The position numbers were made by a program, and so were the translations under genes. A model generated the notes under the pieces. It searched no databases and had not been told where the DNA came from. It saw nothing but the letters and a program-made list of their open reading frames with translations. A stretch of DNA of 64,000 nucleotides from Patescibacteria group bacterium (lineage in GTDB: Bacteria > Patescibacteriota > Patescibacteriia > UBA2591 > UBA6264), in assembly GCA_021735685.1 (NCBI GenBank), contig JAIPGN010000002.1, forward strand, positions 3,183 through 67,182. The letters are read 5' to 3'. Positions within the stretch are counted from its first letter, which is position 1; the number at the start of each line of letters is the position of its first letter. Shown piece after piece: positions 14,279 to 64,000 of this stretch.

Positions 14279-14303
14279 ATGTACGAGGTTCGACCTCGTA
14301 CAT
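14279..14303. repeat. 25-bp perfect palindrome ATGTACGAGG-TTCGA-CCTCGTACAT; the core is inverted relative to the four copies at 52.6-53.0 kb
   Basis: Sits immediately after the rpmE stop. The arms are identical to those copies and the central 'gttcgac' is the reverse complement of their 'gtcgaac'. Confidence 0.8.
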
Positions 14304-34063: not shown

Positions 34064-34471
34064 TCAAGTTTTAAGATGACGATCAATTACTTCATTAACC
34101 AAAGAATCTGCTTCCTTATTCTTTTCTCGAGGAATGTGATAAAAATTAATATTTTCAAAAAATTGAGATAAATTCCAAACCTTTAAGAACAATTTTCCTA
34201 GTTTTGGATTTTTAACTTTAAAACGACGATTTAATTGTTCAACAACTAATTGACTATCCAGATAACAATCTACTTTTTTTGCTGACAAAGATTTTGCTTT
34301 TTCTAATCCTAAGATTAAAGCTTCATATTCGGCTTGATTATTCGTGCTTGAGCCTAAAAATCGAGAGGTCTTTTTAATTAAATTCATTTTCTTATCGTAA
34401 ATTACCGCCCCTGCTCCTCCCGGACCAGGATTACCTCGCGCGCCGCCATCACTATAGATAATAAATTTCAT
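34064..34471 (-). CDS. rnhA: Ribonuclease HI
   Basis: 'IYSDGGARGNPGPGGAGAVI...NNQAEYEALILGLEKA' RNase H fold catalytic residues. Confidence 0.85.
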   Translation of the reverse strand: MKFIIYSDGGARGNPGPGGAGAVIYDKKMNLIKKTSRFLGSSTNNQAEYEALILGLEKAKSLSAKKVDCYLDSQLVVEQLNRRFKVKNPKLGKLFLKVWNLSQFFENINFYHIPREKNKEADSLVNEVIDRHLKT

Positions 34472-34483
34472 TTTCTAATTTTT

Positions 34484-36169
34484 TTATGACTTTTTAATAT
34501 CTGAAACATTTAATTGCAACTCTTGAGTGCCGTTCCATTGATTAATTTCTAAACGAAAAACAACATCAATTTTTTCTCCTGGACGAAAATTAACCATTTT
34601 TTGAGCTGAGTTAAAATAAATCATTTTTCGACCACCTTCCACAAATAGACGATAATGCTTACCACCTCGTCCCACTGCTTGTATTTTTTCTAAAATAACT
34701 CCCGCTAACAAAAACTTAGGACAAGGATTCCCAAAACCAAAAGGCTGAAAATTAATAAACTTCTCGTAAAAATCCCAACTGATGTCATCTGGTTCCAATT
34801 GAGCTTCAATTTTTAAAAAAGGTTTTAGGTCTTTAGCAGCTAAAGCCTTCTTGCTTCTTTCCTGAACACTTTTTTGAAAAGCTTCCCAAGATTTTTCATT
34901 TTTCAAGGTAAAACCTACGGCCCCACTATGCCCACCAAAATTTTTAAAATGTTTTTCTTCTTGTCGCAAAAAAGTAAATAGATCAAAATTATCAATTGAG
35001 CGACCAGAGCCACTAATTTCGCCCTCTTTCTTACTCAAAACTAAAGCCGGGCGATAAAAAGCATCAACTAATTTATTGGCCACTAGTCCTAAAATTCCTC
35101 CTGGCCAATCCTCTCCCAAAGCAACAATAATCTTTTCTCGCGGTTTAACTTGAATAGATTTGAAAATTTTCTCAGTTATCTTTTGCCTTTGAGTATTCAG
35201 GGAGTTTAAATTTTGAGCCCACTCTTCGGCTTTAACCAAAGTAGAAGATAAAAATAAATTCAGGGCATCAGTAGCTTGATTAATGCGTCCAGCCGCATTA
35301 ATCCTCGGACTAAGACGAAAACTAATGTCTTCCGAGCTTAAACCCTTGGGAGTTAAAGAAGAAACCTTAATCAAAGACTTTAGTCCTAAATTTCTAGTTT
35401 TATTTAAAACCACTAAGCCGTACTTAACTAAAACTCTATTTTCGCCCAAAAGAGGCATAGAATCTGCCACCGTGCCCAAAGCCACTAAATCTAAAAGCCA
35501 TTTTTCAGTTGCTTCTTTGTTTTTTAAAACACACTCTTTAGATCTTAAAAGGGCTTGCCCTAGCTTAAAAGCAACCCCCACTCCTGCTAAAAAGCGGAAG
35601 GGATACTTTTCCCTTTTAAGCTGAGGATTAATAATAGCCAAGGCGTTTGGTAAATGACGAGGCTCAAGATGATGATCAGTGACAATCACATCTAAACCAG
35701 CAGAGTTAGCTAAATCTATCTCCTCTTTATTGGAAACTCCACAATCACAAGTAATAATCAGATTAAATTTTTCTTTAATAAATCTTTCAATTGCTCCTTG
35801 ATTCAATCCATAACCATCTATTTCCCGGTTTGGAATATAAAAATGTAAATTAACAGCTCCCAATTTTTTTAAAAGTTTAAATAAAATTGTAGTTGAAGTC
35901 ACTCCATCTGTGTCATAATCACCGCAAATCACAATTTTTTCTTTCTTTTTAATGGCTTGATATATTCTCTTTACCGCTACTTTCATATCTTGGAGTAAAA
36001 AAGGATCATGCACGTCCTGAGAATAATCTGGTCGCAGAAATTCATCAATTTTTTCTTGATTATCCAAACCTCGATTAAAAAGTAATTGCAAAATTACCGG
36101 ATGAACTTCCGGAAATTTATCTTGAAATTTTTTTGAAATTGAAGGGGCAATGCGCCAAATTTTATCCAT
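34484..36169 (-). CDS. recJ: Single-stranded-DNA-specific exonuclease RecJ
   Basis: DHH 'IVICGDYDTDGVTST', 'DHH' motif 'VTDHH', DHHA1 domain, OB-fold C-terminus. Confidence 0.85.
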   Translation of the reverse strand: MDKIWRIAPSISKKFQDKFPEVHPVILQLLFNRGLDNQEKIDEFLRPDYSQDVHDPFLLQDMKVAVKRIYQAIKKKEKIVICGDYDTDGVTSTTILFKLLKKLGAVNLHFYIPNREIDGYGLNQGAIERFIKEKFNLIITCDCGVSNKEEIDLANSAGLDVIVTDHHLEPRHLPNALAIINPQLKREKYPFRFLAGVGVAFKLGQALLRSKECVLKNKEATEKWLLDLVALGTVADSMPLLGENRVLVKYGLVVLNKTRNLGLKSLIKVSSLTPKGLSSEDISFRLSPRINAAGRINQATDALNLFLSSTLVKAEEWAQNLNSLNTQRQKITEKIFKSIQVKPREKIIVALGEDWPGGILGLVANKLVDAFYRPALVLSKKEGEISGSGRSIDNFDLFTFLRQEEKHFKNFGGHSGAVGFTLKNEKSWEAFQKSVQERSKKALAAKDLKPFLKIEAQLEPDDISWDFYEKFINFQPFGFGNPCPKFLLAGVILEKIQAVGRGGKHYRLFVEGGRKMIYFNSAQKMVNFRPGEKIDVVFRLEINQWNGTQELQLNVSDIKKS

Positions 36170-51599: not shown

Positions 51600-52550
51600 A
51601 TGATTAGCATGCCTAGCGAAATCAAAAAATTAATTACTGATTTTTTGGAATATTTAGAAATTGAAAAAGGTTGCAGTCCTTTGACCATCCGTAATTATAG
51701 TTTTTATCTTCAAAGATTTGTTGAACATGCTCAGATTAATTCAGCTTCAGAGATTAATAAAGAAAAAGTACGTCAATTTCGTCTTTGGCTATCTCGCCAA
51801 AAAAATTATCGGCAGGAAAACCTTTCTTTGGCTACTCAAAACTACCATTTAATCGCTTTACGTTGCTTTTTAAAATATCTTGCCGTTAAAGACATTAAAA
51901 CCTTAGCTCCAGAAAAAATCGAACTAGCTAAAACCGAAGAAAGACAAATTTCCTTTCTGGAGGGTCGTGATTTGGAAAACCTTTTAGAAGCTCCTTTAAA
52001 AGTTAAGCAAAAAAAAATCATTAGTTGGCGCGATAAAGCAATTCTGGAGCTTCTCTTTTCTACAGGTCTTCGAGTTTCTGAACTAACCAATCTCAAAAAA
52101 GAAAACATCAATTTGCAAAAAAATGAATTTAGTGTGCGAGGAAAGGGTAAAAAATGGCGATTAGTTTTTCTTTCTCAGCAAGCTAAACATTGGCTTAAAA
52201 AATATCTTGACCAAAGAACTGATTTTGACCCCTCTCTTTTCGTTCGTCACGATCGGGCTCGCTCTAATGATAAAAAATCCCTAGGAATCACTCCTCGTTC
52301 CGTACAAAGATTGGTGCAAAAATATGCCAAAGTAGCTGGTTTAACCCGTAAAATAAGCGTTCACACCTTGCGTCACAGCTTTGCTACTGACCTTCTTTCC
52401 GGAGGCGCTAATTTACGAGCCGTCCAGGAATTATTGGGACACCGGAACATCACTACTACTCAAATTTATACTCACGTCACCAATCAACATTTACGAGAAA
52501 TCTATCAAAATTTTCACGACCAAAAAAGAAAAAACAAAGAAAAAGAATAA
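51600..52550 (+). CDS. xerD: Tyrosine site-specific recombinase, XerC/XerD-like
   Basis: N-terminal core-binding 'LITDFLEYLEIEKGCSPLTIRNY'; C-terminal 'HTLRHSFATDLL...LGHRNITTTQIYTHV' (R-H-R-Y catalytic residues). Confidence 0.85.
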   Translation: MISMPSEIKKLITDFLEYLEIEKGCSPLTIRNYSFYLQRFVEHAQINSASEINKEKVRQFRLWLSRQKNYRQENLSLATQNYHLIALRCFLKYLAVKDIKTLAPEKIELAKTEERQISFLEGRDLENLLEAPLKVKQKKIISWRDKAILELLFSTGLRVSELTNLKKENINLQKNEFSVRGKGKKWRLVFLSQQAKHWLKKYLDQRTDFDPSLFVRHDRARSNDKKSLGITPRSVQRLVQKYAKVAGLTRKISVHTLRHSFATDLLSGGANLRAVQELLGHRNITTTQIYTHVTNQHLREIYQNFHDQKRKNKEKE

Positions 52551-52592
52551 AAATCCTATGCTTTCACCATCCCCATCCCTGCATTTTTAAAA

Positions 52593-52669
52593 ATGTACGA
52601 GGTCGAACCTCGTACATAGCATGGTTAAGCTGTTTTAGAGGCAAATGTACGAGGTCGAACCTCGTACAT
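52593..52669. repeat. 77-bp unit A: palindrome-27 nt spacer-palindrome (ATGTACGAGGTCGAACCTCGTACAT x2)
   Basis: Perfect 25-bp palindromes at 52593-52617 and 52645-52669 separated by 'agcatggttaagctgttttagaggcaa'; 43 bp after the recombinase stop. Confidence 0.85.
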
Positions 52670-52706
52670 GCCCACCTAAATACTTACTAAATGCTCATAA
52701 ACTTAT

Positions 52707-52912: not shown

Positions 52913-52930
52913 CGGAAAATGCTCAAAAAA

Positions 52931-53007
52931 ATGTACGAGGTCGAACCTCGTACATAGCATGGTTAAGCTGTTTTAGAGGCAAATGTACGAGGTCGAACCT
53001 CGTACAT
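52931..53007. repeat. 77-bp unit B, identical to unit A (palindromes at 52931-52955 and 52983-53007)
   Basis: Same 25-bp palindromes and the same 27-nt spacer as unit A; together they bracket the tRNA-Arg/tRNA-His pair. Confidence 0.85.
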
Positions 53008-53062
53008 GGCACATGGCATATGGATTGCGCTTGATCCATATTTTTCTGCAATAAAAAATTAT

Positions 53063-55434: not shown

Positions 55435-58400
55435 TTATTCTTCTTGAATCTCAGCTGGTGGGAAACAAATCGTATTCCCCCAAGGACAACAAGAACTAAG
55501 TCCGCCGGGGCAGTCTTCCCATTCACAGCTAGAAGAAGGAGACTCTCCTGCGTCTGTAACAGCAGTCACTTGATAATAATAGTCTACATAAGGCAAAATT
55601 CTCTGATCAGTATAACAACAAACACTAGAATCATCCTGCCCTTTTCCACAATTATTATCCTCTACTCCTAAAACATGACAGACTTCAGTCAGAGAACAAT
55701 TGTCTTGGCCACAATCACCCGCTTCATAATCTACTCTAACGCTTTCCTGGCTACGAATAGCGTCATAAAAAGACAAATTATCAATCAAGCCATGGAAATA
55801 TCCCGGAGATCCTCCGTTGCTAGCGCCGATTAATAAATCATTCGTGCTTAAAGGCGCAATTGAATCAAGAATATAAGAAGAGGTTTTATCTAAAAGCCCA
55901 TCAATATAAAAAGTAACTGTTCCTTGTCCAGATTGATGATTACGGATAGCAACCAAATGGTGCCAATCCGTGTCATCAATTAAAGTATCACTTTTAATTT
56001 CTATTTTTTCAGTAACCCCATCTCCAAAAATAAGAGCTAATAAGTCATCAGAGCCAATTTCCCAACGCAAGAAACGATTAATATCATCTTCTGAGTCTTT
56101 GTTGTCAGAAAAAATAACATCTCGAGTGCCAGCAGAACTCCTCTTCACCCAAGCCTGAAGGGTAATGGTCTCGCTATCAAATTCTTCACTGTTGGGAATA
56201 ATAATATAATTACTTGTGCCGTTAAACTCTCCGGCATTATTAAATAAGCCATTTGTATTTGGCGTAGCTCCAAAAGACGTCCCGTGATGAGTTGAATCAG
56301 AACCAGAAGAATCTTTAACCTCTTCTGACGTCCCATCCCAATCTTCCTCATTCATTTTCCAATGAGCAGTTAAATTAGTATAATCCATAGCTTCTCCTAA
56401 ATGACCAATAACGGCAAAGTCTTCCGCCGTGCTTAAAGAATTATAAATATTGTAGCCACTCGCTGTTTCTGATAAATCCCAATAAACTTCTATTTCGCCA
56501 CAAGTATTATCATCAATTTCCACATTTTCTGGAGAGCAAAGGGTTGTTCTTTGCCAAACCGGACCCTCCGAATTATAAGTAGAACCAGTTTCATTATGAG
56601 CTTCAATTTTGTAACAATAACCAGTATCTGAGCTAAGTCCCACATCCTGAACATTAAACTCTTCTCCACTTAAAACATTATATTCTACGTAAGAACAAGT
56701 AGCGCAATCACTTGCCTCAACATTATCGCAACGATGATAAGTATAGCTTTCCGCCCAGTCCGATGACTCCCATTGAATTAAAAGCTGTTCACATCCTTCC
56801 GTGTTAGTTACGGACACACTATTAAAATCAGCTGGTTCTGGAGGATCACCATAATCATGATCATTATCGCCCCAGCCCACACAATAAGGATCTTGCTTCT
56901 GGTAATCACGAAGAACTTGGGTTGGTGTGCGAGCAACTTCGTAGATAGAAACATTATCAATCAAGCCTCGGAAATAAGAATCACCTCTTAAAAAACGTCC
57001 CCCAATTGATAAACTTAAGTTATTGGACAAGTCACTAATCTCTCCAAAACTATCAACCGAACCAGTGACCTCTCCATCTAAATACCTAGTAATGGTTCCT
57101 TGAGCTCGATCAAAAACCACAGCTACGTGATTCCAAGTATTGAGAGTTAAATAATTAGAATCAGGAGTATCAGCTTTACTATTTGCCTCATCTCTTAAAT
57201 ACCAAGAAATTCCCCCGTTATAATCCAATCCAATCTCATAACCAGGACCGCTATTTCTTTTGACGATAGGCAAAGATCCACTAGTCTTAAAAAAGTCCAT
57301 GGGCTTAACCCAAAACTGAATTGTAAAACTTTCCGCATCATTAAAATCCAACTTTTCGCTATCAGCAATTTCAATATAATCATTTAAACCGTCAAATTGA
57401 CCGGCATTATTAAAAAGACCATCGGAGTTAGGACTAGCCCCACTAGCTATTCCTTGATTACCCTCGCCACTGCTATCTACCACTGGAATAGAGCTGCCGG
57501 TATTAGTCGACCAACTCGGTTCATCCATCATCCAATTACCCACTAATCCCTCTGAATCCATAGTGGTATCGGCATGACGATTAGCCATATATCCTCCCAT
57601 TGTATAAAAAGGGCTATAATTATTTAAATAAATGCCCCAAATTTTTCCTTGTTTAGTTGCTCCTCGTAAGTTAAGCCAACCGGCGTTTTCCAAATTAATA
57701 ACCTTGGCCCAACCAGAAACCTCTATTTTGGCATCTGCCCAAACATCACGTGCACTTCTTCCAAAAGTCAAACCGATATTATTACAAGTCCAAAGAGAAA
57801 CATTATCAATTAAACCAGTAAAATAACTATCCATTTGACCCGAGCTTCCCTTTTTCGCTCCCAAATAAAAATCATTATTTAAATCTTCCAAAAAAGATGG
57901 AATCTCGCCTAAAATTTCTGAACTAACCGACAGACCATCAATAAAGATTTGCAAAAAAGCATCTTTATCACTAGTGGCGGTTATATATTTACCGGTTAAA
58001 TGATGCCATTTAGTGACATCAGTAATCAAAGCATTACGGCAAAAAGCACCCTTACCCTCACAGTCCTCATCCGAGGAACACTGCTCTCCTTGGTTTACTC
58101 CCCCGAAACAAAGGCCTCTCCTCTGTTTAACAGTAGCTTCTTCCCCACCATTACCTACTGAAAAATTAAGCTTATTTTCTTGATCAAACCAAAGACGATA
58201 ACTTTTTTCACCCGTAGATTCATCCCATTTGCTTAAAATTGTCTGCTCTCTGTTAATCTCTCCTCTTTTCACCCAAGCTTCAATAGTTAAATTATCACTT
58301 ATACTTAAACTTGGACTATCCAACGCATAAAGATAACTATTTTCTCCATTAAATTGCAAAGCATCGTCAAATTTTCCCTTCGCCAGGCTTGGCGAGACTC

Positions 58401-59244
58401 CTATAGAAAAATCATTTCCAAAAGAAGAATTATCAGCTAAAGCTGCAGAAATTTCCCCACCTCCAGAATTCATTTTCCAATGGGCTTTCAAAGTTTCATT
58501 GGTAACACTATAGCAAAGAGATCCCGAACGATTAATATCTAAAAAATCTTCACCGCCATCCCCCGAGCAACCAAAGATACATAGTCCATCAGGACAATCT
58601 GAGCTTTCCTTGCTACAAGATTGCCCATCATTAGCGCCACCATCACAATACCAACTAGGTTCGCCCACACAAGCCCAAGAAAAAGGCCAACCGCCAGGAG
58701 GATTAACCTGTTCTGGTTCGGGGCAACCCGAACAACCTGTACAATTAACATAATCCTCGCAACTACTGCAATCAGCACACTTACAACTACGGCCAAAACA
58801 AACCCAGCCAACCTTATCCGACCAAGCATAACCCCTTAAACTCTCTCTTTGAGTGTCATAAACTAATCCGTAAAGCGGACTTTCCATCCCACTCGGGCAA
58901 GTACTTCCGCCCGGGCAACAATTCTCAAAAGTGCCGTCCTTGGAACATACTCCTCCGCCCTCACAATCTCCGTCCTGAGTGCAAGGCTCTCCGTCATAAA
59001 TACCTCCCACGCAAACTGCAGTAAAATCATTATGACAATTCGCAGAAATCCAACCCATATTCTCTCCCCACGTCCAACCGCGTACATTAAAATCTATATC
59101 TGCTCCCACTCTCTCTAAACCAAATCTATTATTAGGGGAATTAAAAAAATATTTGGGAATAATAAATATTCCCAGAATAACAAATATTCCTAAAACTAAA
59201 AAAATTCTCAGAGATTTTTTTTCCAAAAAACTCAACTTCATCAT
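55435..59244 (-). CDS. Giant (1269 aa) surface protein with Cys-rich modules and three LamG/concanavalin-A-like lectin domains
   Basis: N-terminal TM; three repeats of the 'FNNAG(Q/E)F(D/N)G...Y..I..S..L.F....T...WVK' LamG pattern ('DDALQFNGENSYLY...IEAWVKR'; 'FNNAGQFDGLNDYIEIADS...IQFWVKP'; 'FNNAGEFNGTSNYIIIPNS...LQAWVKR'); multiple CxxC clusters. Confidence 0.7.
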   Translation of the reverse strand: MMKLSFLEKKSLRIFLVLGIFVILGIFIIPKYFFNSPNNRFGLERVGADIDFNVRGWTWGENMGWISANCHNDFTAVCVGGIYDGEPCTQDGDCEGGGVCSKDGTFENCCPGGSTCPSGMESPLYGLVYDTQRESLRGYAWSDKVGWVCFGRSCKCADCSSCEDYVNCTGCSGCPEPEQVNPPGGWPFSWACVGEPSWYCDGGANDGQSCSKESSDCPDGLCIFGCSGDGGEDFLDINRSGSLCYSVTNETLKAHWKMNSGGGEISAALADNSSFGNDFSIGVSPSLAKGKFDDALQFNGENSYLYALDSPSLSISDNLTIEAWVKRGEINREQTILSKWDESTGEKSYRLWFDQENKLNFSVGNGGEEATVKQRRGLCFGGVNQGEQCSSDEDCEGKGAFCRNALITDVTKWHHLTGKYITATSDKDAFLQIFIDGLSVSSEILGEIPSFLEDLNNDFYLGAKKGSSGQMDSYFTGLIDNVSLWTCNNIGLTFGRSARDVWADAKIEVSGWAKVINLENAGWLNLRGATKQGKIWGIYLNNYSPFYTMGGYMANRHADTTMDSEGLVGNWMMDEPSWSTNTGSSIPVVDSSGEGNQGIASGASPNSDGLFNNAGQFDGLNDYIEIADSEKLDFNDAESFTIQFWVKPMDFFKTSGSLPIVKRNSGPGYEIGLDYNGGISWYLRDEANSKADTPDSNYLTLNTWNHVAVVFDRAQGTITRYLDGEVTGSVDSFGEISDLSNNLSLSIGGRFLRGDSYFRGLIDNVSIYEVARTPTQVLRDYQKQDPYCVGWGDNDHDYGDPPEPADFNSVSVTNTEGCEQLLIQWESSDWAESYTYHRCDNVEASDCATCSYVEYNVLSGEEFNVQDVGLSSDTGYCYKIEAHNETGSTYNSEGPVWQRTTLCSPENVEIDDNTCGEIEVYWDLSETASGYNIYNSLSTAEDFAVIGHLGEAMDYTNLTAHWKMNEEDWDGTSEEVKDSSGSDSTHHGTSFGATPNTNGLFNNAGEFNGTSNYIIIPNSEEFDSETITLQAWVKRSSAGTRDVIFSDNKDSEDDINRFLRWEIGSDDLLALIFGDGVTEKIEIKSDTLIDDTDWHHLVAIRNHQSGQGTVTFYIDGLLDKTSSYILDSIAPLSTNDLLIGASNGGSPGYFHGLIDNLSFYDAIRSQESVRVDYEAGDCGQDNCSLTEVCHVLGVEDNNCGKGQDDSSVCCYTDQRILPYVDYYYQVTAVTDAGESPSSSCEWEDCPGGLSSCCPWGNTICFPPAEIQEE

Positions 59245-59371: not shown

Positions 59372-60010
59372 TTATTCAACATGCATTACTCCAGTCTCGC
59401 CTCTTCCTCGATGACCAGGAACGTCACAGTAGAAAGTGTAATCACCGGCAGCTGGAGCCTTAAAAGTGATAGCTCTGGTCTCGTTTCCGGCAACTCCAAT
59501 AGCGACCGCCTGCAAGCTCGCATCGTCAAACTTAAAGACATGAGTACGATCGGTTGAAGTCAAAGAAAGAGTGACCACATCACTAGCATTAACCGTAAAT
59601 TCACTAGGAGTGAAACCACTGGCGCTAATACTTAACTTTACTGCTGTTTCTGGAACTTCCTCTTCGGTTAAGGCACGAGATTGTCGGGGAGCGTCTGGAG
59701 AACCAGGTAAGGCAGTATTATCCGCAACCTCTCCTCCAGAAGTTAGAACTTCACCTTCTTCAGAAACTGGACTAGCATCTGGAACTACAGATTCAGAAAC
59801 TTCCTCTGCCTCGCCTTCTTCAGGGATAAATTCACCCTCTTCTTCGGGAAGCATTTCCCCTTCTTCTTCGGGAAGCATTTCCCCTTCTTCTTCGGGAAGC
59901 ATTTCCCCTTCTGGCTCAACTACTTCAGGCTTAGAACTGAGTAAAATAATACCCAAAATAACTAAAATCGCGATAATAATAATAGTCCAAACTGTATTGT
60001 TGTTTTTCAT
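59372..60010 (-). CDS. Membrane-anchored cupredoxin (plastocyanin/amicyanin-like type-1 copper protein) with acidic repeat linker
   Basis: C-terminal 'THVFKF...GDYTFYCDVPGHRGRGETGVMHVE' gives the His...Cys-x2-Pro?-Gly-His...Met ligand set. N-terminal TM and 'EGEMLPEE' x3. Confidence 0.6.
   Translation of the reverse strand: MKNNNTVWTIIIIAILVILGIILLSSKPEVVEPEGEMLPEEEGEMLPEEEGEMLPEEEGEFIPEEGEAEEVSESVVPDASPVSEEGEVLTSGGEVADNTALPGSPDAPRQSRALTEEEVPETAVKLSISASGFTPSEFTVNASDVVTLSLTSTDRTHVFKFDDASLQAVAIGVAGNETRAITFKAPAAGDYTFYCDVPGHRGRGETGVMHVE
59836..59910. repeat. 24-bp tandem repeat x3 inside the cupredoxin gene
   Basis: 'ccttcttcttcgggaagcatttcc' repeated; encodes EGEMLPEE. Confidence 0.7.
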
Positions 60011-60066: not shown

Positions 60067-61650
60067 TTATAAAGATAAAATGTTTTCAACCTCCACAACA
60101 ATTCCATTAATTAAGGTTTGTGTATCAGTATAAAGACTATCAAGAGATTGCTGGTAGGTTCTCAAAAGAGCTAATTTTTCGTTTTCAGACACTTCCGTCA
60201 AACCGTAAACGTTATAAATATCAATTAAAATAGCATCTATTTGCGCAACATTAGTATCTAAAGAATTCTCTGGATCTGCTTCGTAAGTATCCAACAAAGC
60301 CAAAGATGTATCTAATTCTGAAGTGTCGCCAGTGTCTAAATATCTTTTCGTGCAGTCATTATAACAAAAATCTCCGGTTGTTCCATCAACCTCATTATTA
60401 TCGTCACACTCTTCCTCCCCCTCAACAACTCCATCTCCACAAACAGCAGTCTCTGGATTCTCTTCTCGGCTGGCTGTACACACCGGACTATCCCCGCCAG
60501 CTGCCGAACAAGTCCAATCTAAACTTTGCCCTTGTTCAGGGAAATCGGTTTTAGAAGGTGTTCCAACTGAACATTGTTCATAGGGAGGATATCCCGTAGC
60601 ATCATAAGGAAAAACTCTTTCGTGAGCATCTCCGCAAGCACCAACTGGTGGATTTTCTCGACTAGCTGAACACTGGGAACTATCTCCTCCGCTAGTCTGA
60701 CAAAGCCAATTTTCTGTTCCTCCCTGAACAGGAAAATTAGTATTAGTGGAACTTCCCGTAGCGCACTGAAGATAAGGACTATAACCAGTGGCATCATAAG
60801 AGAAGGTCATGCCATTAGCATTACCACAAGTACCTGGTTCCTCAGGTGCCGCTCCTCCCACATATTCTTCTAATAATCCATTAGCTGCGCACTTGCCTCC
60901 CTGATAACAATCTTTCAGTCCTTCGGGAGCACAAAATTCAACTATACACTGTTCTTCATTACCGTCTGCCGCTGCCATGGCTAATCCTAATTCAGGATCG
61001 CCTACACATAAACCATTTTCTTCAGAAAAAAAACAAGGCTGGCCTTGAAGATTTAGCTGAGACCCACAAAGCTCAGGGTCGGTTTGATCATATTTACGGC
61101 AAGTCCAACCCGTGGTCGGCACTTCAGCAGCTAAAGCTGGAGAAATAAAACTAGATAAATTGGGCCAATCAAAGACTAATTTTCTTTTATTTTGAAAAAA
61201 AGTATACTCTGGCCCAGTAGTATAATTAGCCACAAAAGTTCTAGTATCATTTATTAGTTGATAAGAGTTTTGGATTTGAGAAGCTAAGCCGTTAGCTTGG
61301 ATATAAGATAAGGCCGAATCCCCTAAAATCATAAAAGTTAAATCTAAAGAGCTCCCGGTAGTATTCATTAAATCTAAAATTTCTTGCTCAGTACTACTAG
61401 CCTGAATTGAACTTTCTAAAGATGTAAGCTCACTACCAAAACTACTAAGCAATGAATTTATTGCCTCAAAATTAATATATTCCATATCTTCTATTCTTCC
61501 ATAAAAAGAACTAGCCAGAGAAGGAGTATATTTATTTTGTATTCTATCCACATAAAAACTTTTAGTGCTAGCTAAATCCGCATGAACTGCCGAGCTCCAA
61601 AAGAAAACTAAAAACAAGCTTAAAATTAATAAATACTTAAAATTTTTCAT
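60067..61650 (-). CDS. Secreted cysteine-rich protein with an internal ~45-aa duplicated module and a 'CGDGVVEGEEECDD' Cys-rich repeat
   Basis: Signal peptide 'LLILSLFLVFFWSSAVHA'; modules 'TGYSPYLQCATGS...WLCQTSGGDSSQCSASRE' and 'TGYPPYEQCSVGT...WTCSAAGGDSPVCTASRE'. Confidence 0.6.
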   Translation of the reverse strand: MKNFKYLLILSLFLVFFWSSAVHADLASTKSFYVDRIQNKYTPSLASSFYGRIEDMEYINFEAINSLLSSFGSELTSLESSIQASSTEQEILDLMNTTGSSLDLTFMILGDSALSYIQANGLASQIQNSYQLINDTRTFVANYTTGPEYTFFQNKRKLVFDWPNLSSFISPALAAEVPTTGWTCRKYDQTDPELCGSQLNLQGQPCFFSEENGLCVGDPELGLAMAAADGNEEQCIVEFCAPEGLKDCYQGGKCAANGLLEEYVGGAAPEEPGTCGNANGMTFSYDATGYSPYLQCATGSSTNTNFPVQGGTENWLCQTSGGDSSQCSASRENPPVGACGDAHERVFPYDATGYPPYEQCSVGTPSKTDFPEQGQSLDWTCSAAGGDSPVCTASREENPETAVCGDGVVEGEEECDDNNEVDGTTGDFCYNDCTKRYLDTGDTSELDTSLALLDTYEADPENSLDTNVAQIDAILIDIYNVYGLTEVSENEKLALLRTYQQSLDSLYTDTQTLINGIVVEVENILSL

Positions 61651-61772
61651 AAAAAAATATTAAAAAATATAAATTATACAAAGATACAATAACCAAGATA
61701 CAAGATACAAGACACAAACAAATCGCAAATTCCCCGCCTGCCAGCGAGCAGGCAATACTCAATGTCCAAGCT

Positions 61773-62114
61773 CTATTTCGTTTTATCAATAATAGAAGAA
61801 AGAATATTTTTTAATTCTGTGGCTTCTTGATAAAGAGCTTTAACTTCTTTTTTAAAACTTGGGTTAGCTACCTCAATAAGCTCAAGCCAATGTAATGTTT
61901 CTTTAGCTTCTTTCCTTGATATTTTTAAACGATGAGCAAAATCTTTCTTTCCTAACGCATCATTTGCCTCTCTATAATTAGCTCCTACTGAACCCGCTGA
62001 CCCAACTATTTGTCCAATTAACCTACTGTTCATTGAATTATGTGTCAATTTTCTGCACAAACGAATCACATTTTTAGCAAATTCTGTAGTTCTTTCCTCT
62101 AAGTCAAACCTCAT
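61773..62114 (-). CDS. Four-helix-bundle protein (23S rRNA IVS protein / DGR Avd family)
   Basis: 113 aa; 'TEFAKNVIRLCRKL...LIGQIVGSAGSVGANYREANDALGKKDFAHRLKISRKEAKETLHWLEL' matches the PF05635/TIGR02436 pattern. Confidence 0.75.
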   Translation of the reverse strand: MRFDLEERTTEFAKNVIRLCRKLTHNSMNSRLIGQIVGSAGSVGANYREANDALGKKDFAHRLKISRKEAKETLHWLELIEVANPSFKKEVKALYQEATELKNILSSIIDKTK

Positions 62115-62176
62115 ACAATATTTGGTTATTGGTTATTGAATATTGTTTGGTTATTGTTTCTTGTGTCTTGTTTCTT

Positions 62177-62407
62177 TTATTCCGTAGGAATTTCTAAATT
62201 TCCCTTCAATTGATTTACCAAATCTTCTAAACTCTTCTTGGTCACCTCTCCTTCCGTTTTTTTGTCTTTATCAATCTTTAAAATCTCAGTACCAATTTCC
62301 TCTTTTTCTTCTTCCAGTAACTCCTCTTTAGAAATCATTATAAATAAAGCAATGATAACTAGCAAGAGAACAATCAACCAAAGATATTTTTTTTTATTTT
62401 TTGGCAT
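62177..62407 (-). CDS. Small single-TM protein with acidic tail
   Basis: 76 aa; 'YLWLIVLLLVIIALFIMI' TM then Glu/Lys-rich. Confidence 0.35.
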   Translation of the reverse strand: MPKNKKKYLWLIVLLLVIIALFIMISKEELLEEEKEEIGTEILKIDKDKKTEGEVTKKSLEDLVNQLKGNLEIPTE

Positions 62408-62438
62408 ATATTTTTTATATTATTAAAAATAATTTCAA

Positions 62439-63800
62439 CTAATAAGCGCCAGAAGTGGAATGGCTCTCTATTGTATACCAAGCCGCGCCAGAAGTGCTGT
62501 TCATGCAAACTTGAAAATAAGCGACTCCGCTTGATTCATAATAACGCATTGCCCCTAATGTTCCAGAAGTACAACTTTCTGTGCCGATTCCACCAGCAAA
62601 AGTAAGACCAGAAACATTCATATCTCCATCAATATTCATGTTTCCACCAACATAAGCAGAGCCACCTACATTTAAATTGTCTCCGATATATACAGGGTTT
62701 TCTCCAGCTGCGCTAGCTACATGCAAGGCATAACTACCCCCTGTTCCCTTTATCCCGACATTTCCATCAGTGCGGACATAAATTCCATAATTAGTACTAG
62801 TTTTGCCGTCACCGCCACTCTTGATAGCAATAGCATCTCCTGATGTTATATTTAAAGTACTGGAACTAGGCATGGTCTCTGGCGGCCAACTAGGAGTAGT
62901 GCAATCATCATCCCAAATATAAGAGTCGTCGGCTATTCTGATACCCTTTTCTCCAGGAGAACCACACTCTGTGATTCCAATAAAACCACCTACCAAAAGA
63001 TCATTGGTAATCCAGGCGTTTCCCTGCTGGACATGTAAGGCTGCCCCTGGCTCTGTCGTGCCAATTCCGATTCTTGCCTGATCATCTATTAAAGAAAAAC
63101 GAATTGTTCCTCGAACGCTAGAACAAAGCTCTGCTACACAATATTTAAAAATTAAAGGAGTGTTGGTTTGAGAACCCTGCGACAACAAAGACCAAGATTC
63201 ATTTGCACCTGCGTTTCCAATACTTATACTAACATCATCATTAGCGTCTTCGTCAATCCAAAATTTTGGATCTTGATCAGTCTGGAATTGGGAATCAGCA
63301 AAGCCAAAAACCAAAGGCTTGTTAACGGCATCTCCCATAGAACTAATTTTCCAAAACTCTCCATAAGTACCAGTTTCATCTCCTAATCTAATTTCTGCCC
63401 CTCGACTACCTGTAGCAGAGGTTGATTTTACTTGCAAGGTCTGAACTCCGCTTCCCCTAATATCTAAAGGATGCCCCGGATCATTCGTGCCAATGCCAAC
63501 ATTACCGGAAAGGCCCAATGTGGCGTCTTTATTTAAATAGACATCGCTGGCATTTTGACGCCAAATGCCAACATAGGAAAAAGAATGAACTCCATTCACC
63601 GCATCTTTCGCATAACCCCAGGTCGCGGCACTATCATCTGCTCCAGGTTCTGCTAAATGTTTAATTTCATAAGGTCCTCCCTCTTGCCCTAAATTCAAAT
63701 TATTACTCACTTTTAAATCAGCCGCCCAAGCAATAGCCCAAACTCCTAAAATTAAAGTCAGAACAATTCCTCCTAATAAAATTACTTTTTCCTTTTTCAT
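62439..63800 (-). CDS. Secreted beta-rich Gly/Ser/Thr/Asn-rich protein with fibre-like '(V/I)GIGT..PG..L.V' repeats
   Basis: Signal peptide 'LLGGIVLTLILGVWAIAWA'; 'NVGIGTNDPGHPLDIRG', 'RIGIGTTEPGAALHVQQG', 'NVGIKGTGGSYALHVAS'. Confidence 0.55.
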   Translation of the reverse strand: MKKEKVILLGGIVLTLILGVWAIAWAADLKVSNNLNLGQEGGPYEIKHLAEPGADDSAATWGYAKDAVNGVHSFSYVGIWRQNASDVYLNKDATLGLSGNVGIGTNDPGHPLDIRGSGVQTLQVKSTSATGSRGAEIRLGDETGTYGEFWKISSMGDAVNKPLVFGFADSQFQTDQDPKFWIDEDANDDVSISIGNAGANESWSLLSQGSQTNTPLIFKYCVAELCSSVRGTIRFSLIDDQARIGIGTTEPGAALHVQQGNAWITNDLLVGGFIGITECGSPGEKGIRIADDSYIWDDDCTTPSWPPETMPSSSTLNITSGDAIAIKSGGDGKTSTNYGIYVRTDGNVGIKGTGGSYALHVASAAGENPVYIGDNLNVGGSAYVGGNMNIDGDMNVSGLTFAGGIGTESCTSGTLGAMRYYESSGVAYFQVCMNSTSGAAWYTIESHSTSGAY

Positions 63801-63927
63801 AAAAAAATATTAAAAAATAATTATTAAAGAAACAAAAAACAAGATACAAGAAACAAACAAATCCTAAACTTCAAACTCCAAAAACATCTAAAATAATTAT
63901 AGCGCTTAAAAATATAAGATGCAACCC

Positions 63928-64000
63928 TTATTTTGTCTTATTAATAATAGAAGAAAGAATATTTTTAATTTCTGTTGCCTCCTGAAAAAGAATCTTTACC
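63928..64000 (-). CDS. Second four-helix-bundle gene (paralog of 61773-62114), C-terminal 24 codons only
   Basis: Reads '...FQEATEIKNILSSIINKTK*' versus copy 1 '...YQEATELKNILSSIIDKTK*'; continues past the window end. Confidence 0.6.
   Translation of the reverse strand, partial: VKILFQEATEIKNILSSIINKTK

Follow-up and report, generated by a model that had tools for sequence, protein, structure and literature searches.

Paired four-helix-bundle genes of a Patescibacteria bacterium lie in inverted-heptamer cassettes that resemble rRNA intervening sequences

We analysed a 64-kb stretch of chromosomal DNA (the window; 64,000 nt of contig JAIPGN010000002.1) from a low-GC (35.5%) bacterium of the Patescibacteria, or Candidate Phyla Radiation (CPR), which carries two genes for small four-helix-bundle (4HB) proteins of the Avd/S23p type. 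We found that each 4HB gene is the centre of a cassette of about 500 nt, in which a degenerate heptamer array lies 5' of the 113-aa gene and its reverse complement forms a second array on the 3' side. A sequence-only reading of this DNA had suggested, among other options, a remnant of a diversity-generating retroelement (DGR); our results do not support a DGR module. The cassette architecture, its recurrence across lineages, the complementarity of the two arrays within a cassette, derivatives that lack the open reading frame (ORF), changes in site occupancy, replacement at a site and purifying selection on the ORF were all observed. We consider it fairly probable that the two loci are copies of a self-contained, dispensable and probably mobile cassette of the intervening sequence (IVS) type residing outside rRNA, a joint explanation that includes the mechanism proposed below.

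The main sequence was the window plus the 372 nt past its end, the latter taken from an overlapping 4.5-kb Logan contig (L001); labels L001 to L103 denote the related loci and contigs compared with the window. The parts of the two cassettes, with one neighbouring segment, are as follows.

61773 to 62114, minus strand: 4HB gene copy 1, 113 aa (ORF; PF05635 at 9.3e-18, TIGR02436 at 2e-24).
62115 to 62176, minus strand: 5' arm of cassette 1, a degenerate heptamer run (from the sequence and its inverted repeats; regular-expression array at 62143-62170).
61680 to 61724, minus strand: 3' arm of cassette 1, GATTTGTTTGTGTCTTGTATCTTGTATCTTGGTTATTGTATCTTT on the coding strand (inverted repeat; regular-expression array at 61687-61721).
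61736 to 61753, minus strand: GC-rich hairpin (GCCTGC-N6-GCAGGC, then GGGG), located past the 4HB stop codon and before the 3' arm (a single match in the window).
61651 to 61679, minus strand: AT-rich leader of a 527-aa gene, native to that host gene (same leader at the empty sites in L093 and L098).
63928 to 64000, minus strand: 4HB gene copy 2, the last 23 codons and the stop codon inside the window (from translation).
63820 to 63879, minus strand: 3' arm of cassette 2, heptamer core at 63827-63865 (inverted repeats; regular-expression array).

The two 4HB genes lie on the minus strand 2155 nt apart, in line with the same-strand placement at about 2.2 kb read from the sequence alone, and no third 4HB paralogue was found in the window. 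The second gene had been described as a 3' end only, which is true inside the window; it runs on for 269 nt past the window end, and in L001 (104-445) it is complete, with 113 codons and 83% amino acid identity to copy 1. The C-terminal tail common to both copies is identical at 19 of 23 residues (VKILFQEATEIKNILSSIINKTK versus VKALYQEATELKNILSSIIDKTK), not at 22 of 24 as first counted. The spacers from each 4HB gene to the next start codon are 122 nt and 127 nt, and both downstream genes encode signal-peptide proteins, as the sequence-only reading had it.

Both genes are members of the PF05635/TIGR02436 four-helix-bundle family (S23p, '23S rRNA IVS protein'), which agrees with the fold assigned from the sequence alone. 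PF05635 was matched at 64.8 bits (cut-off 33.8) and TIGR02436 at 85.9 bits for copy 1 and 87.3 bits for copy 2 (cut-off 24), with no family beyond these two for the 4HB protein in Pfam and NCBIfam. Among anti-phage defence and phage families, PADLOC gave no match for either copy and PHROGs gave none for copy 1. The AlphaFold model of the 4HB protein (pLDDT 96) has four helices, and its best matches in the PDB were 2RLD (TM 0.83-0.87, 31-33% identity) and 2GSC (TM 0.83-0.89 for 2RLD and 2GSC together). The DGR accessory protein bAvd ranked after these (4DWL, TM 0.75-0.81, 11% identity; also 8UB7), and sequence and profile searches recovered 2RLD, not bAvd. The structure prediction that had been proposed as a check thus indicates an Avd/S23p-type four-helix bundle much closer to the stand-alone S23p proteins than to bAvd. 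From the crystal structures 2RLD and 2GSC, we assume by analogy that the window protein would form a homopentameric ring.

We found dN/dS values of 0.03-0.13 for the 4HB ORF relative to its relatives, so the ORF is under purifying selection and the 4HB protein therefore matters to something. Between copies 1 and 2, dS is about 0.9. Hence, recent tandem duplication is excluded.

On the coding strand, the upstream arms are built of heptamers of the type CAAGATA/CAATAAC and the downstream arms of the reverse complement. The 5' arm of cassette 1 reads CAAGACA CAAGAAA CAATAAC CAAACAA ... CAATAAC CAATAAC and fills the interval from the stop codon of an upstream 76-aa gene to the 4HB start codon; that of cassette 2 lies past the window end (L001:47-100) and reads CAAGATA CAAGATA CAAGAGA CAAGAAA CAAACAA TAATCAA TAATCAA. 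In both cassettes the 3' arm (GATTTGTTTGTKTCTTGTATCTTG...) begins 47-48 nt past the 4HB stop codon. Arm-to-arm local alignment spans 38 nt with 8 mismatches in cassette 1 and 34 nt with 4 mismatches in cassette 2. The inverted motifs noticed around copy 1 in the sequence-only reading are therefore real, being recovered both by the inverted-repeat search and as regular-expression arrays. Scanning the window and its 372-nt extension for at least four consecutive units of CAA followed by any four bases returned exactly four arrays, all of them bracketing the two 4HB genes, versus 0 arrays in 20 shuffles. Counted as strict in-phase units, the heptamers have a mode of 4, then 5, per arm, which is neutral towards a match of five units per pentamer.

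Self-comparison by blastn showed that the duplicated DNA amounts to 537 nt at 76% identity (63793-64325 versus 61643-62170) and takes in both arms, the ORF and the leader or a few bases around the next start codon. The spacers had been read as duplicated too, and as far as the cassette is concerned they are. The ribosome-binding-site-proximal block had been included in that statement; this AT-rich block near the start codons (aaaaaaatattaaaaaata) belongs to the host genes, since it is present at the empty sites of relatives. For the same reason we dropped the TATAAT...TTTTTTAATATTTTTTT leader as a part of the cassette. Its presence in L084 had pointed to joint movement with the cassette, but L093 and L098 have it at their empty sites as well. 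A scan for sigma-70 promoters and intrinsic terminators around both cassettes gave matches at chance level only.

The GC-rich hairpin at 61736-61753 is a separate indel, present in the window and L094 but not in L082, L083 or L084. Within the 3' arm of L084 lies another GC-rich hairpin, of 53 nt (L084:440-500), and GC-rich hairpins, unlike their AT-rich surroundings, also lie in or beside the heptamer arms of L004, L062, L066, L077 and L081. They look like independent small insertions or terminator-like modules.

The cassette design is not confined to this genome. Word-sharing homologues of the 4HB protein number more than 3700, the best 120 clusters being 67-100% identical, and the PF05635-type family comprises 10,807 clusters at 50% identity. 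For the main subfamily we compared 80 genome loci (4HB identity 64-78%). They span many Patescibacteria classes and Omnitrophota, among the latter the complete genome of Ca. Velamenicoccus archaeovorus, and others are from metagenome-assembled genomes labelled Planctomycetota, Dehalococcoidia and others. Nearly all 80 have the heptamer-flank design. In 79 main-subfamily cassettes, flank identity peaks at lags of 7 and 14 (0.46-0.47 versus about 0.33), and the top 7-mers upstream are the top 7-mers downstream once reverse-complemented. We scored flank complementarity by local alignment of the upstream flank with the reverse-complemented downstream flank and found a mean arm inverted-repeat score of 19.7, compared with 8.6 when flanks were shuffled and with a median of 8 in the flanks of control ORFs. 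RNAduplex energies between flanks had been tried and were abandoned in favour of this alignment; they did not discriminate, as huge loops are allowed and the flanks of control genes scored as low.

The inverted-heptamer design also recurs, with different heptamers, in Cyanobacteria, Chloroflexota, Spirochaetota and Bacteroidota. In the same loci, 4HB genes of lower identity (33-58%) have other heptamers and keep the inverted symmetry, as do those on cyanobacterial plasmids; plasmids of Chloroflexota, spirochaetes and Bacteroidota contain 4HB genes as well. The alternative arm heptamers include CCTAAAT, TTACTAA, CCCCAAT/CGTAAAT, AATTCGT, GTCGGAG and GGGTGTG, among those of a 13-cassette matrix, and further AATTCGC, TTCAAAA, TGACCAG and ATGAAGG. 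In that matrix, a cassette's own arms score on average about 21 against each other versus 8.7 across cassettes, and none of 20,000 permutations reached the observed trace. Arms of the plasmid cassettes (n = 13) are clear inverted heptamer arrays in 8, complex in 3 and direct repeats in 2.

We also found ORF-less hairpins made of the same heptamers at many loci (100-160 nt, -16 to -55 kcal/mol). In the related loci, 80 heptamer arrays lie more than 250 nt from any detected 4HB gene, many of them as convergent pairs that fold into hairpins; the window itself has no ORF-less heptamer copies. A scan of IMG/VR returned no 4HB relatives on viral contigs, and two 'phage' matches are bacterial-looking fragments with neither reverse transcriptase (RT) nor tandem arrays.

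The occupancy of the insertion sites changes between close relatives. Three host genes mark these sites.

62177 to 62407, minus strand: 76-aa small membrane protein, host gene directly upstream of cassette 1 (ORF).
60067 to 61650, minus strand: 527-aa signal-peptide protein with cysteine-rich repeats, host gene downstream of cassette 1 (ORF; TIGR02232 repeat).
62439 to 63800, minus strand: 453-aa signal-peptide protein, host gene downstream of cassette 2 (ORF).

Site 1 lies between the 76-aa and the 527-aa genes; the former is kept beside the insertion site in L082, L093, L094 and L098, and homologues of the latter mark occupied and empty sites alike. The cassette is intact at this site in the window and in L082/L083 (4HB 96% identical), is reduced to a 4HB pseudogene in L094-L097 (Q35 to stop and a frameshift), and is missing from L093 (78-nt spacer, flanking protein 75% identical) and from L098 (34-nt spacer), where the order 448aa-75aa-474aa-cupredoxin-LamG-OB is fully syntenic. 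In L082 the 5' arm at site 1 is 35 nt, or five heptamer units, longer than in the window. Site 2, upstream of the 453-aa gene, is rearranged in L094, where the ORF and the 3' arm are gone; the 5' flank and the 48-nt segment after the stop codon are common with the window, and about 95 nt of CCTAAAT-type heptamers stand in place of the rest. A cassette of a different subfamily is present in L056 and absent from the syntenic loci L011 and L041. In L006 and L010 a neighbouring gene has 86% amino acid identity, the 4HB genes are only 43.5% identical and the arms differ. This points to replacement of the cassette at that site, not to vertical divergence. A 94%-identical 4HB gene in L084 lies beside NTP_transf_2/HEPN genes, a third context in this lineage.

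Further details were noted at these loci. The rearranged stretch L094:34-130 holds a perfect 7-bp palindrome (ATTGACA-TAAA-TGTCAAT), and CCTAAAT is the arm type of another 4HB subfamily; a cassette of another kind may once have stood here and left this stretch as its scar. In L082 (1-115 and 4010-4130), the two cassettes have almost identical 3' flanks, one heptamer unit apart, unlike the window cassettes, which are only about 76% identical. This suggests, from sequence comparison, gene conversion or replacement between cassettes in the L082 lineage. Plasmid 4HB genes (L085, L086, L090, L099 and L101) split operons at drmD|pglX, cas2|cas1, csx2|cas1, helicase|N6-methylase and RND adaptor|permease; the presence of the 4HB family inside cas loci had been noted earlier (PMC3936711). 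The genes on either side normally make up tight operons, and splits of this kind fit a selfish insertion between genes better than a function in the systems concerned.

The predicted RNA folds link the two arms. In the minimum free energy folds of both cassettes, the arms pair and enclose the whole ORF in a long stem (z about -2.5). The consensus fold of six close relatives has a 15-bp outer stem, formed by the arms, and a 16-bp inner stem, in which the regions of the start and stop codons pair with each other. The 15 outer pairs are 97.8% paired in the six relatives, and over both stems 96.8% of the cells are paired, compared with 40-50% for slid partners; three pairs of the consensus stems show compensatory changes. 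These figures give modest support to the stem, as the structure was derived from the same six sequences.

The closest known counterpart is the IVS of rRNA genes. In Coxiella the 23S IVS is 428-444 nt long, the inverted repeats at its termini pair into a 28-bp stem that RNase III cuts, and three tandem heptamers (GACAGAT), variable in number between strains, stand just upstream of the S23p ORF (PMC4990558). In CPR bacteria, the 4HB family has also been reported inside 16S and 23S rRNA insertions (PMC11270868). The rRNA IVS of Coxiella burnetii and Leptospira contains an ORF of the same PF05635 family as the window cassettes, is of similar size (about 430-500 nt) and, like the cassettes in their predicted folds, has terminal inverted repeats that enclose the ORF in a long stem. 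Both also have tandem heptamers of varying copy number directly before the start codon, and both have ORF-less forms. The cassettes differ in their location: an IVS lies inside an rRNA gene, where it replaces a helix tetraloop (23S helices 9, 25 or 45), whereas the cassettes lie between protein-coding genes. The sequence-only reading had set the IVS context aside for want of rRNA; the window indeed has none, and a motif scan found no rRNA next to the cassette at any of the 80 related loci, yet the IVS architecture is present, outside rRNA. They differ, too, in the state of the ORF, which in the cassettes is intact and subject to purifying selection; that of Coxiella is in decay and probably untranslated.

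By analogy with the rRNA IVS, the cassette would be transcribed together with the host operon, and its arms would pair into an RNA stem of 35-40 bp, with the inner stem joining the start- and stop-codon regions. RNase III would then cut the arm stem, which would free the 4HB message and separate the flanking cistrons. Insertion would be tolerated, in this proposal, because the cleavage separates the flanking cistrons. The ring-forming 4HB protein may recognise cognate heptamer arrays and so aid the spread or upkeep of the cassette and its ORF-less copies. We infer this recognition of tandem heptamers from the pattern of one heptamer per subfamily and from the ring pentamers 2RLD and 2GSC.

Several observations weigh against the proposal that the cassettes are mobile, IVS-like elements acting through RNA. 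Two of the 13 plasmid cassettes (Bernardetia and Pseudanabaena) have direct rather than inverted repeats, and two Firmicutes-like fragments have no tandem arrays. Hence, the heptamer-arm rule is broad but not universal. We could define neither a target-site duplication nor an exact insertion boundary, because the relatives with empty sites are too divergent. No recombinase or transposase is associated with the cassettes, the nearest tyrosine recombinase being about 9 kb away. About a quarter of the flanking ORFs are apparently on the opposite strand, a count blurred by spurious ORFs in the arrays, so strict dependence on operon read-through does not fit. Arm mismatches show no G.U-compatible excess on the sense strand (99 versus 101), so RNA-level selection is not told apart from symmetry at the DNA level. 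Lastly, main-subfamily arms pair across loci nearly as well as with their own partners (16.4 versus 19.7), which makes locus-specific compensation weak.

Some of these points would suit a mobile element that, like REPIN-RAYT or IS200/IS605, works on DNA: the arrays would fold into hairpins of single-stranded DNA or be ends to which protein binds, the 4HB protein would be a new type of mobilisation or recruitment factor, for instance for a host recombinase or an RT supplied in trans, and the RNA pairing of the arms would be incidental. A REPIN-RAYT system has one gene bracketed by inverted hairpin-forming repeats, many ORF-less copies and a repeat specific to the subfamily. The cassettes are similar in that the 4HB gene stands between inverted repeat units that also occur as dispersed ORF-less hairpins, with an own heptamer for each subfamily; the missing G.U bias in favour of sense RNA, the presence, absence and replacement of cassettes at sites and the orientation of some cassettes against their neighbours speak for the same explanation. 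However, a 113-aa helical bundle without a catalytic fold stands where such a system has a Y1 (HUH) transposase, heptamers in tandem arrays stand where it has a single palindrome, and the window has no ORF-less copies. We saw neither target-site duplications nor defined ends and found no relatives on viral contigs, and the one experimentally characterised relative, the rRNA IVS, acts on RNA through RNase III. We regard DNA-level mobility as possible, with a minor share of the probability.

Less probable still, and in our view unlikely, is that the 4HB protein is a domesticated regulator that binds nucleic acid, with the arrays as operators or as a contingency switch that sets the downstream genes by repeat number. 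The strong purifying selection on the ORF would suit this, as would the different heptamer numbers at the same site in close relatives (the longer 5' arm of L082). Heptamers at start codons affect expression in Nostoc (bioRxiv 10.1101/2022.06.06.494920), and a heptanucleotide repeat in a 5' untranslated region works with RNase III in Haemophilus phase variation (PMC12721329). But unrelated genes follow one and the same cassette, and many of them read as housekeeping genes; it also splits operons, among them cas2|cas1 and RND adaptor|permease. Moreover, close relatives do without the cassette or have a pseudogene, and for a regulator a second, inverted operator 3' of its own gene would be superfluous.

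A remnant or RT-less DGR, in which the 4HB proteins are Avd factors that diversify the secreted proteins downstream and the RT is elsewhere or lost, is very improbable. DGRs are common in CPR bacteria, and bAvd forms a pentamer. The window protein has the Avd fold in common with 4DWL and 8UB7 (the same four-helix-bundle superfamily, at the TM values given above) and is a similarly small basic protein, and both downstream genes encode secreted proteins. Against this, the protein is much nearer to 2RLD and 2GSC, and bAvd, at 11% identity, goes undetected by profile search. A Pfam scan of the 52 window ORFs found no RVT_1 reverse transcriptase, the sole RVT-related match being an RNase H (RVT_3/RNase_H) at 34064-34471; Pfam annotation found no RT in the syntenic relatives L082, L084, L093, L094 and L098 either. 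An RT just beyond position 64000, as had been suggested, was not found in the 372 nt that follow the window.

Likewise, self-blastn of the window and its extension found no near-repeat of template repeat/variable repeat (TR/VR) type with adenine-specific mismatches, and the 3' ends of the genes at 62439-63800, 60067-61650 and 55435-59244 had no partner. The only long repeat was the cassette duplication, with mismatches of every type. The absence of an RT and of a TR/VR pair from the window, noticed at the outset, thus stands for the 52 ORFs and the self-comparison. There is also no C-terminal variable region nearby, and flanking inverted heptamer arrays are not a described feature of DGRs. Nor is the link to secreted proteins general. 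The first codons of the downstream genes in the 80 loci, read by eye, point mostly to housekeeping genes (metG, another class I aminoacyl-tRNA synthetase, gatB, miaA, dnaJ, ksgA, ABC-transporter genes and others). Hence, since related cassettes precede genes that read as housekeeping, the secreted-protein link is only local; the secreted-protein genes also occur without the cassette in relatives. With no RT, no TR/VR pair and no general tie to secreted proteins, the suggestion of a DGR-like module fails, and the alternative offered beside it, an unrelated function of the family, came closest to the truth. For annotation, the cassette explanation would also remove a common trap: in small-genome bacteria, which often have DGRs, an Avd-like gene beside a surface-protein gene is no evidence of a DGR.

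That the genes are ordinary paralogues from a local duplication with chance AT-rich, low-complexity flanks is barely credible: AT-rich repeats are common in a genome of 35.5% G+C, but shuffled windows gave 0 arrays versus the 4 observed, several phyla keep the architecture with heptamers of their own, the duplication does not take in the flanking secreted-protein genes, and the dS of about 0.9 excludes recent tandem duplication.

Returning to the IVS-type cassette, its arms also resemble the intergenic tandem heptamers of other bacteria. Such repeats are known from Nostoc and Calothrix (short tandemly repeated repetitive sequences, STRR), Beggiatoaceae (TAACTGA) and Xanthomonas (GGGAATC); they often end at start codons and sometimes form convergent pairs (PMC4679880, PMC4692102). 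The arms of cyanobacterial 4HB genes are STRR-like heptamers, for example CCCCAAT in Planktothrix and TTCAAAA in Nostoc. We take CCCCAAT to be the classical STRR1 unit. Unlike the STRR, for which the open-access papers give no associated protein, the window arrays occur only as inverted pairs around 4HB genes. In Nostoc PCC 7120, TTCAAAA/TTTTGAA stands upstream of recF and recO and has been ascribed an 'unidentified interacting partner' (bioRxiv 10.1101/2022.06.06.494920). We found the same repeat as the arm repeat of the 4HB gene L103 (Nostoc flagelliforme pNFSY05, 34170-34535). Because TTCAAAA brackets a 4HB gene in Nostoc flagelliforme, cognate 4HB proteins are candidate partners of the Nostoc heptamer. 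In the open-access literature we found no report that links PF05635 genes outside rRNA with inverted heptamer flanks; an earlier description beyond that literature cannot be excluded.

A broader idea, which we put forward tentatively and hold to be a good deal less probable than the cassette explanation itself, is that PF05635 proteins are heptamer-specific binders, each subfamily with a heptamer of its own, that form with their arrays a widespread and hitherto unrecognised class of selfish cassettes, from which rRNA IVS, STRR and Avd derive or to which they belong. If so, ORF-bearing copies would be autonomous and hairpin-only copies non-autonomous, rRNA IVS would be copies that landed in rRNA, and the STRR and other heptamer repeats of cyanobacteria would be dispersed footprints or binding sites. 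In that case a retroelement would have recruited Avd from this family, or an RT supplied in trans would spread the cassettes.

For the window alone the result is modest: a pair of inserts that are intact, pseudogenised or missing in close relatives. Across the family, the pattern could tie IVS ORFs, stand-alone 4HB genes and heptamer repeats together. To our knowledge, IVS ORFs and cyanobacterial tandem heptamers have been without a known function for about three decades, and stand-alone 'four helix bundle protein' genes number in the thousands. If a 4HB gene and its inverted arrays are one unit, then IVS ORFs, STRR-type repeats and stand-alone 4HB genes become one testable system.

The window has the housekeeping content of a chromosome (dnaK-grpE-hrcA, topA, dnaE, several aminoacyl-tRNA synthetases, gatB, miaA, pnp and ftsA), and its RNA genes in Rfam are RNase P RNA and three tRNAs only. 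From 53 kb to the window end every gene is on the minus strand and codes for a secreted or membrane protein, and both 4HB cassettes occupy intergenic spacers of this secreted-protein operon. The products are a 485-aa protein, a 274-aa OB-fold protein, a 1269-aa LamG protein, a 212-aa cupredoxin, the 527-aa Cys-rich protein, the 76-aa membrane protein and the 453-aa protein. The N-termini of the two proteins encoded downstream of the cassettes are typical signal peptides by inspection (MKNFKYLLILSLFLVFFWSSAVHA / MKKEKVILLGGIVLTLILGVWAIAWA), and apart from these the 527-aa and 453-aa proteins are unrelated. No Pfam or NCBIfam family was matched by the 453-aa protein, which has a weak match to the tail-fibre PHROG phrog_9942 (E 2.6e-4, residues 94-142).

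Repeats of other kinds were noted in the same operon. The cupredoxin gene (59372-60010) has three to four 24-nt tandem repeats at 59815-59910, which give the secreted cupredoxin-like protein (P)EEEGEMLP units in its N-terminal linker. The 527-aa gene contains an internal tandem duplication (60432-60834, about 200 nt, 62% identity) that encodes a Cys-rich 'CGxAxxxxFxYDATGYxPYxQC' module; since its mismatches are of all kinds, it is not DGR-like.

Integron attC and CRISPR-like readings of the heptamer arrays were also considered and dropped, as the repeats lie on both sides of the ORF, the cassettes do not line up in one orientation as an array, and neither intI nor cas genes are nearby.

Elsewhere in the window, a 25-nt perfect palindrome (ATGTACGAGG-TCGAA-CCTCGTACAT) occurs in five copies versus 0 expected (14279-14303, 52593-52617, 52645-52669, 52931-52955 and 52983-53007). 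Four of the five copies lie inside two 100%-identical 82-nt direct repeats (52589-52670 and 52927-53008) that bracket tRNA-Arg(TCT) and tRNA-His(GTG), directly downstream of a tyrosine recombinase gene (51600-52550). The palindrome and the 82-nt repeats could be a family of hairpins like repetitive extragenic palindromes, or att-like repeats around the tRNA pair.

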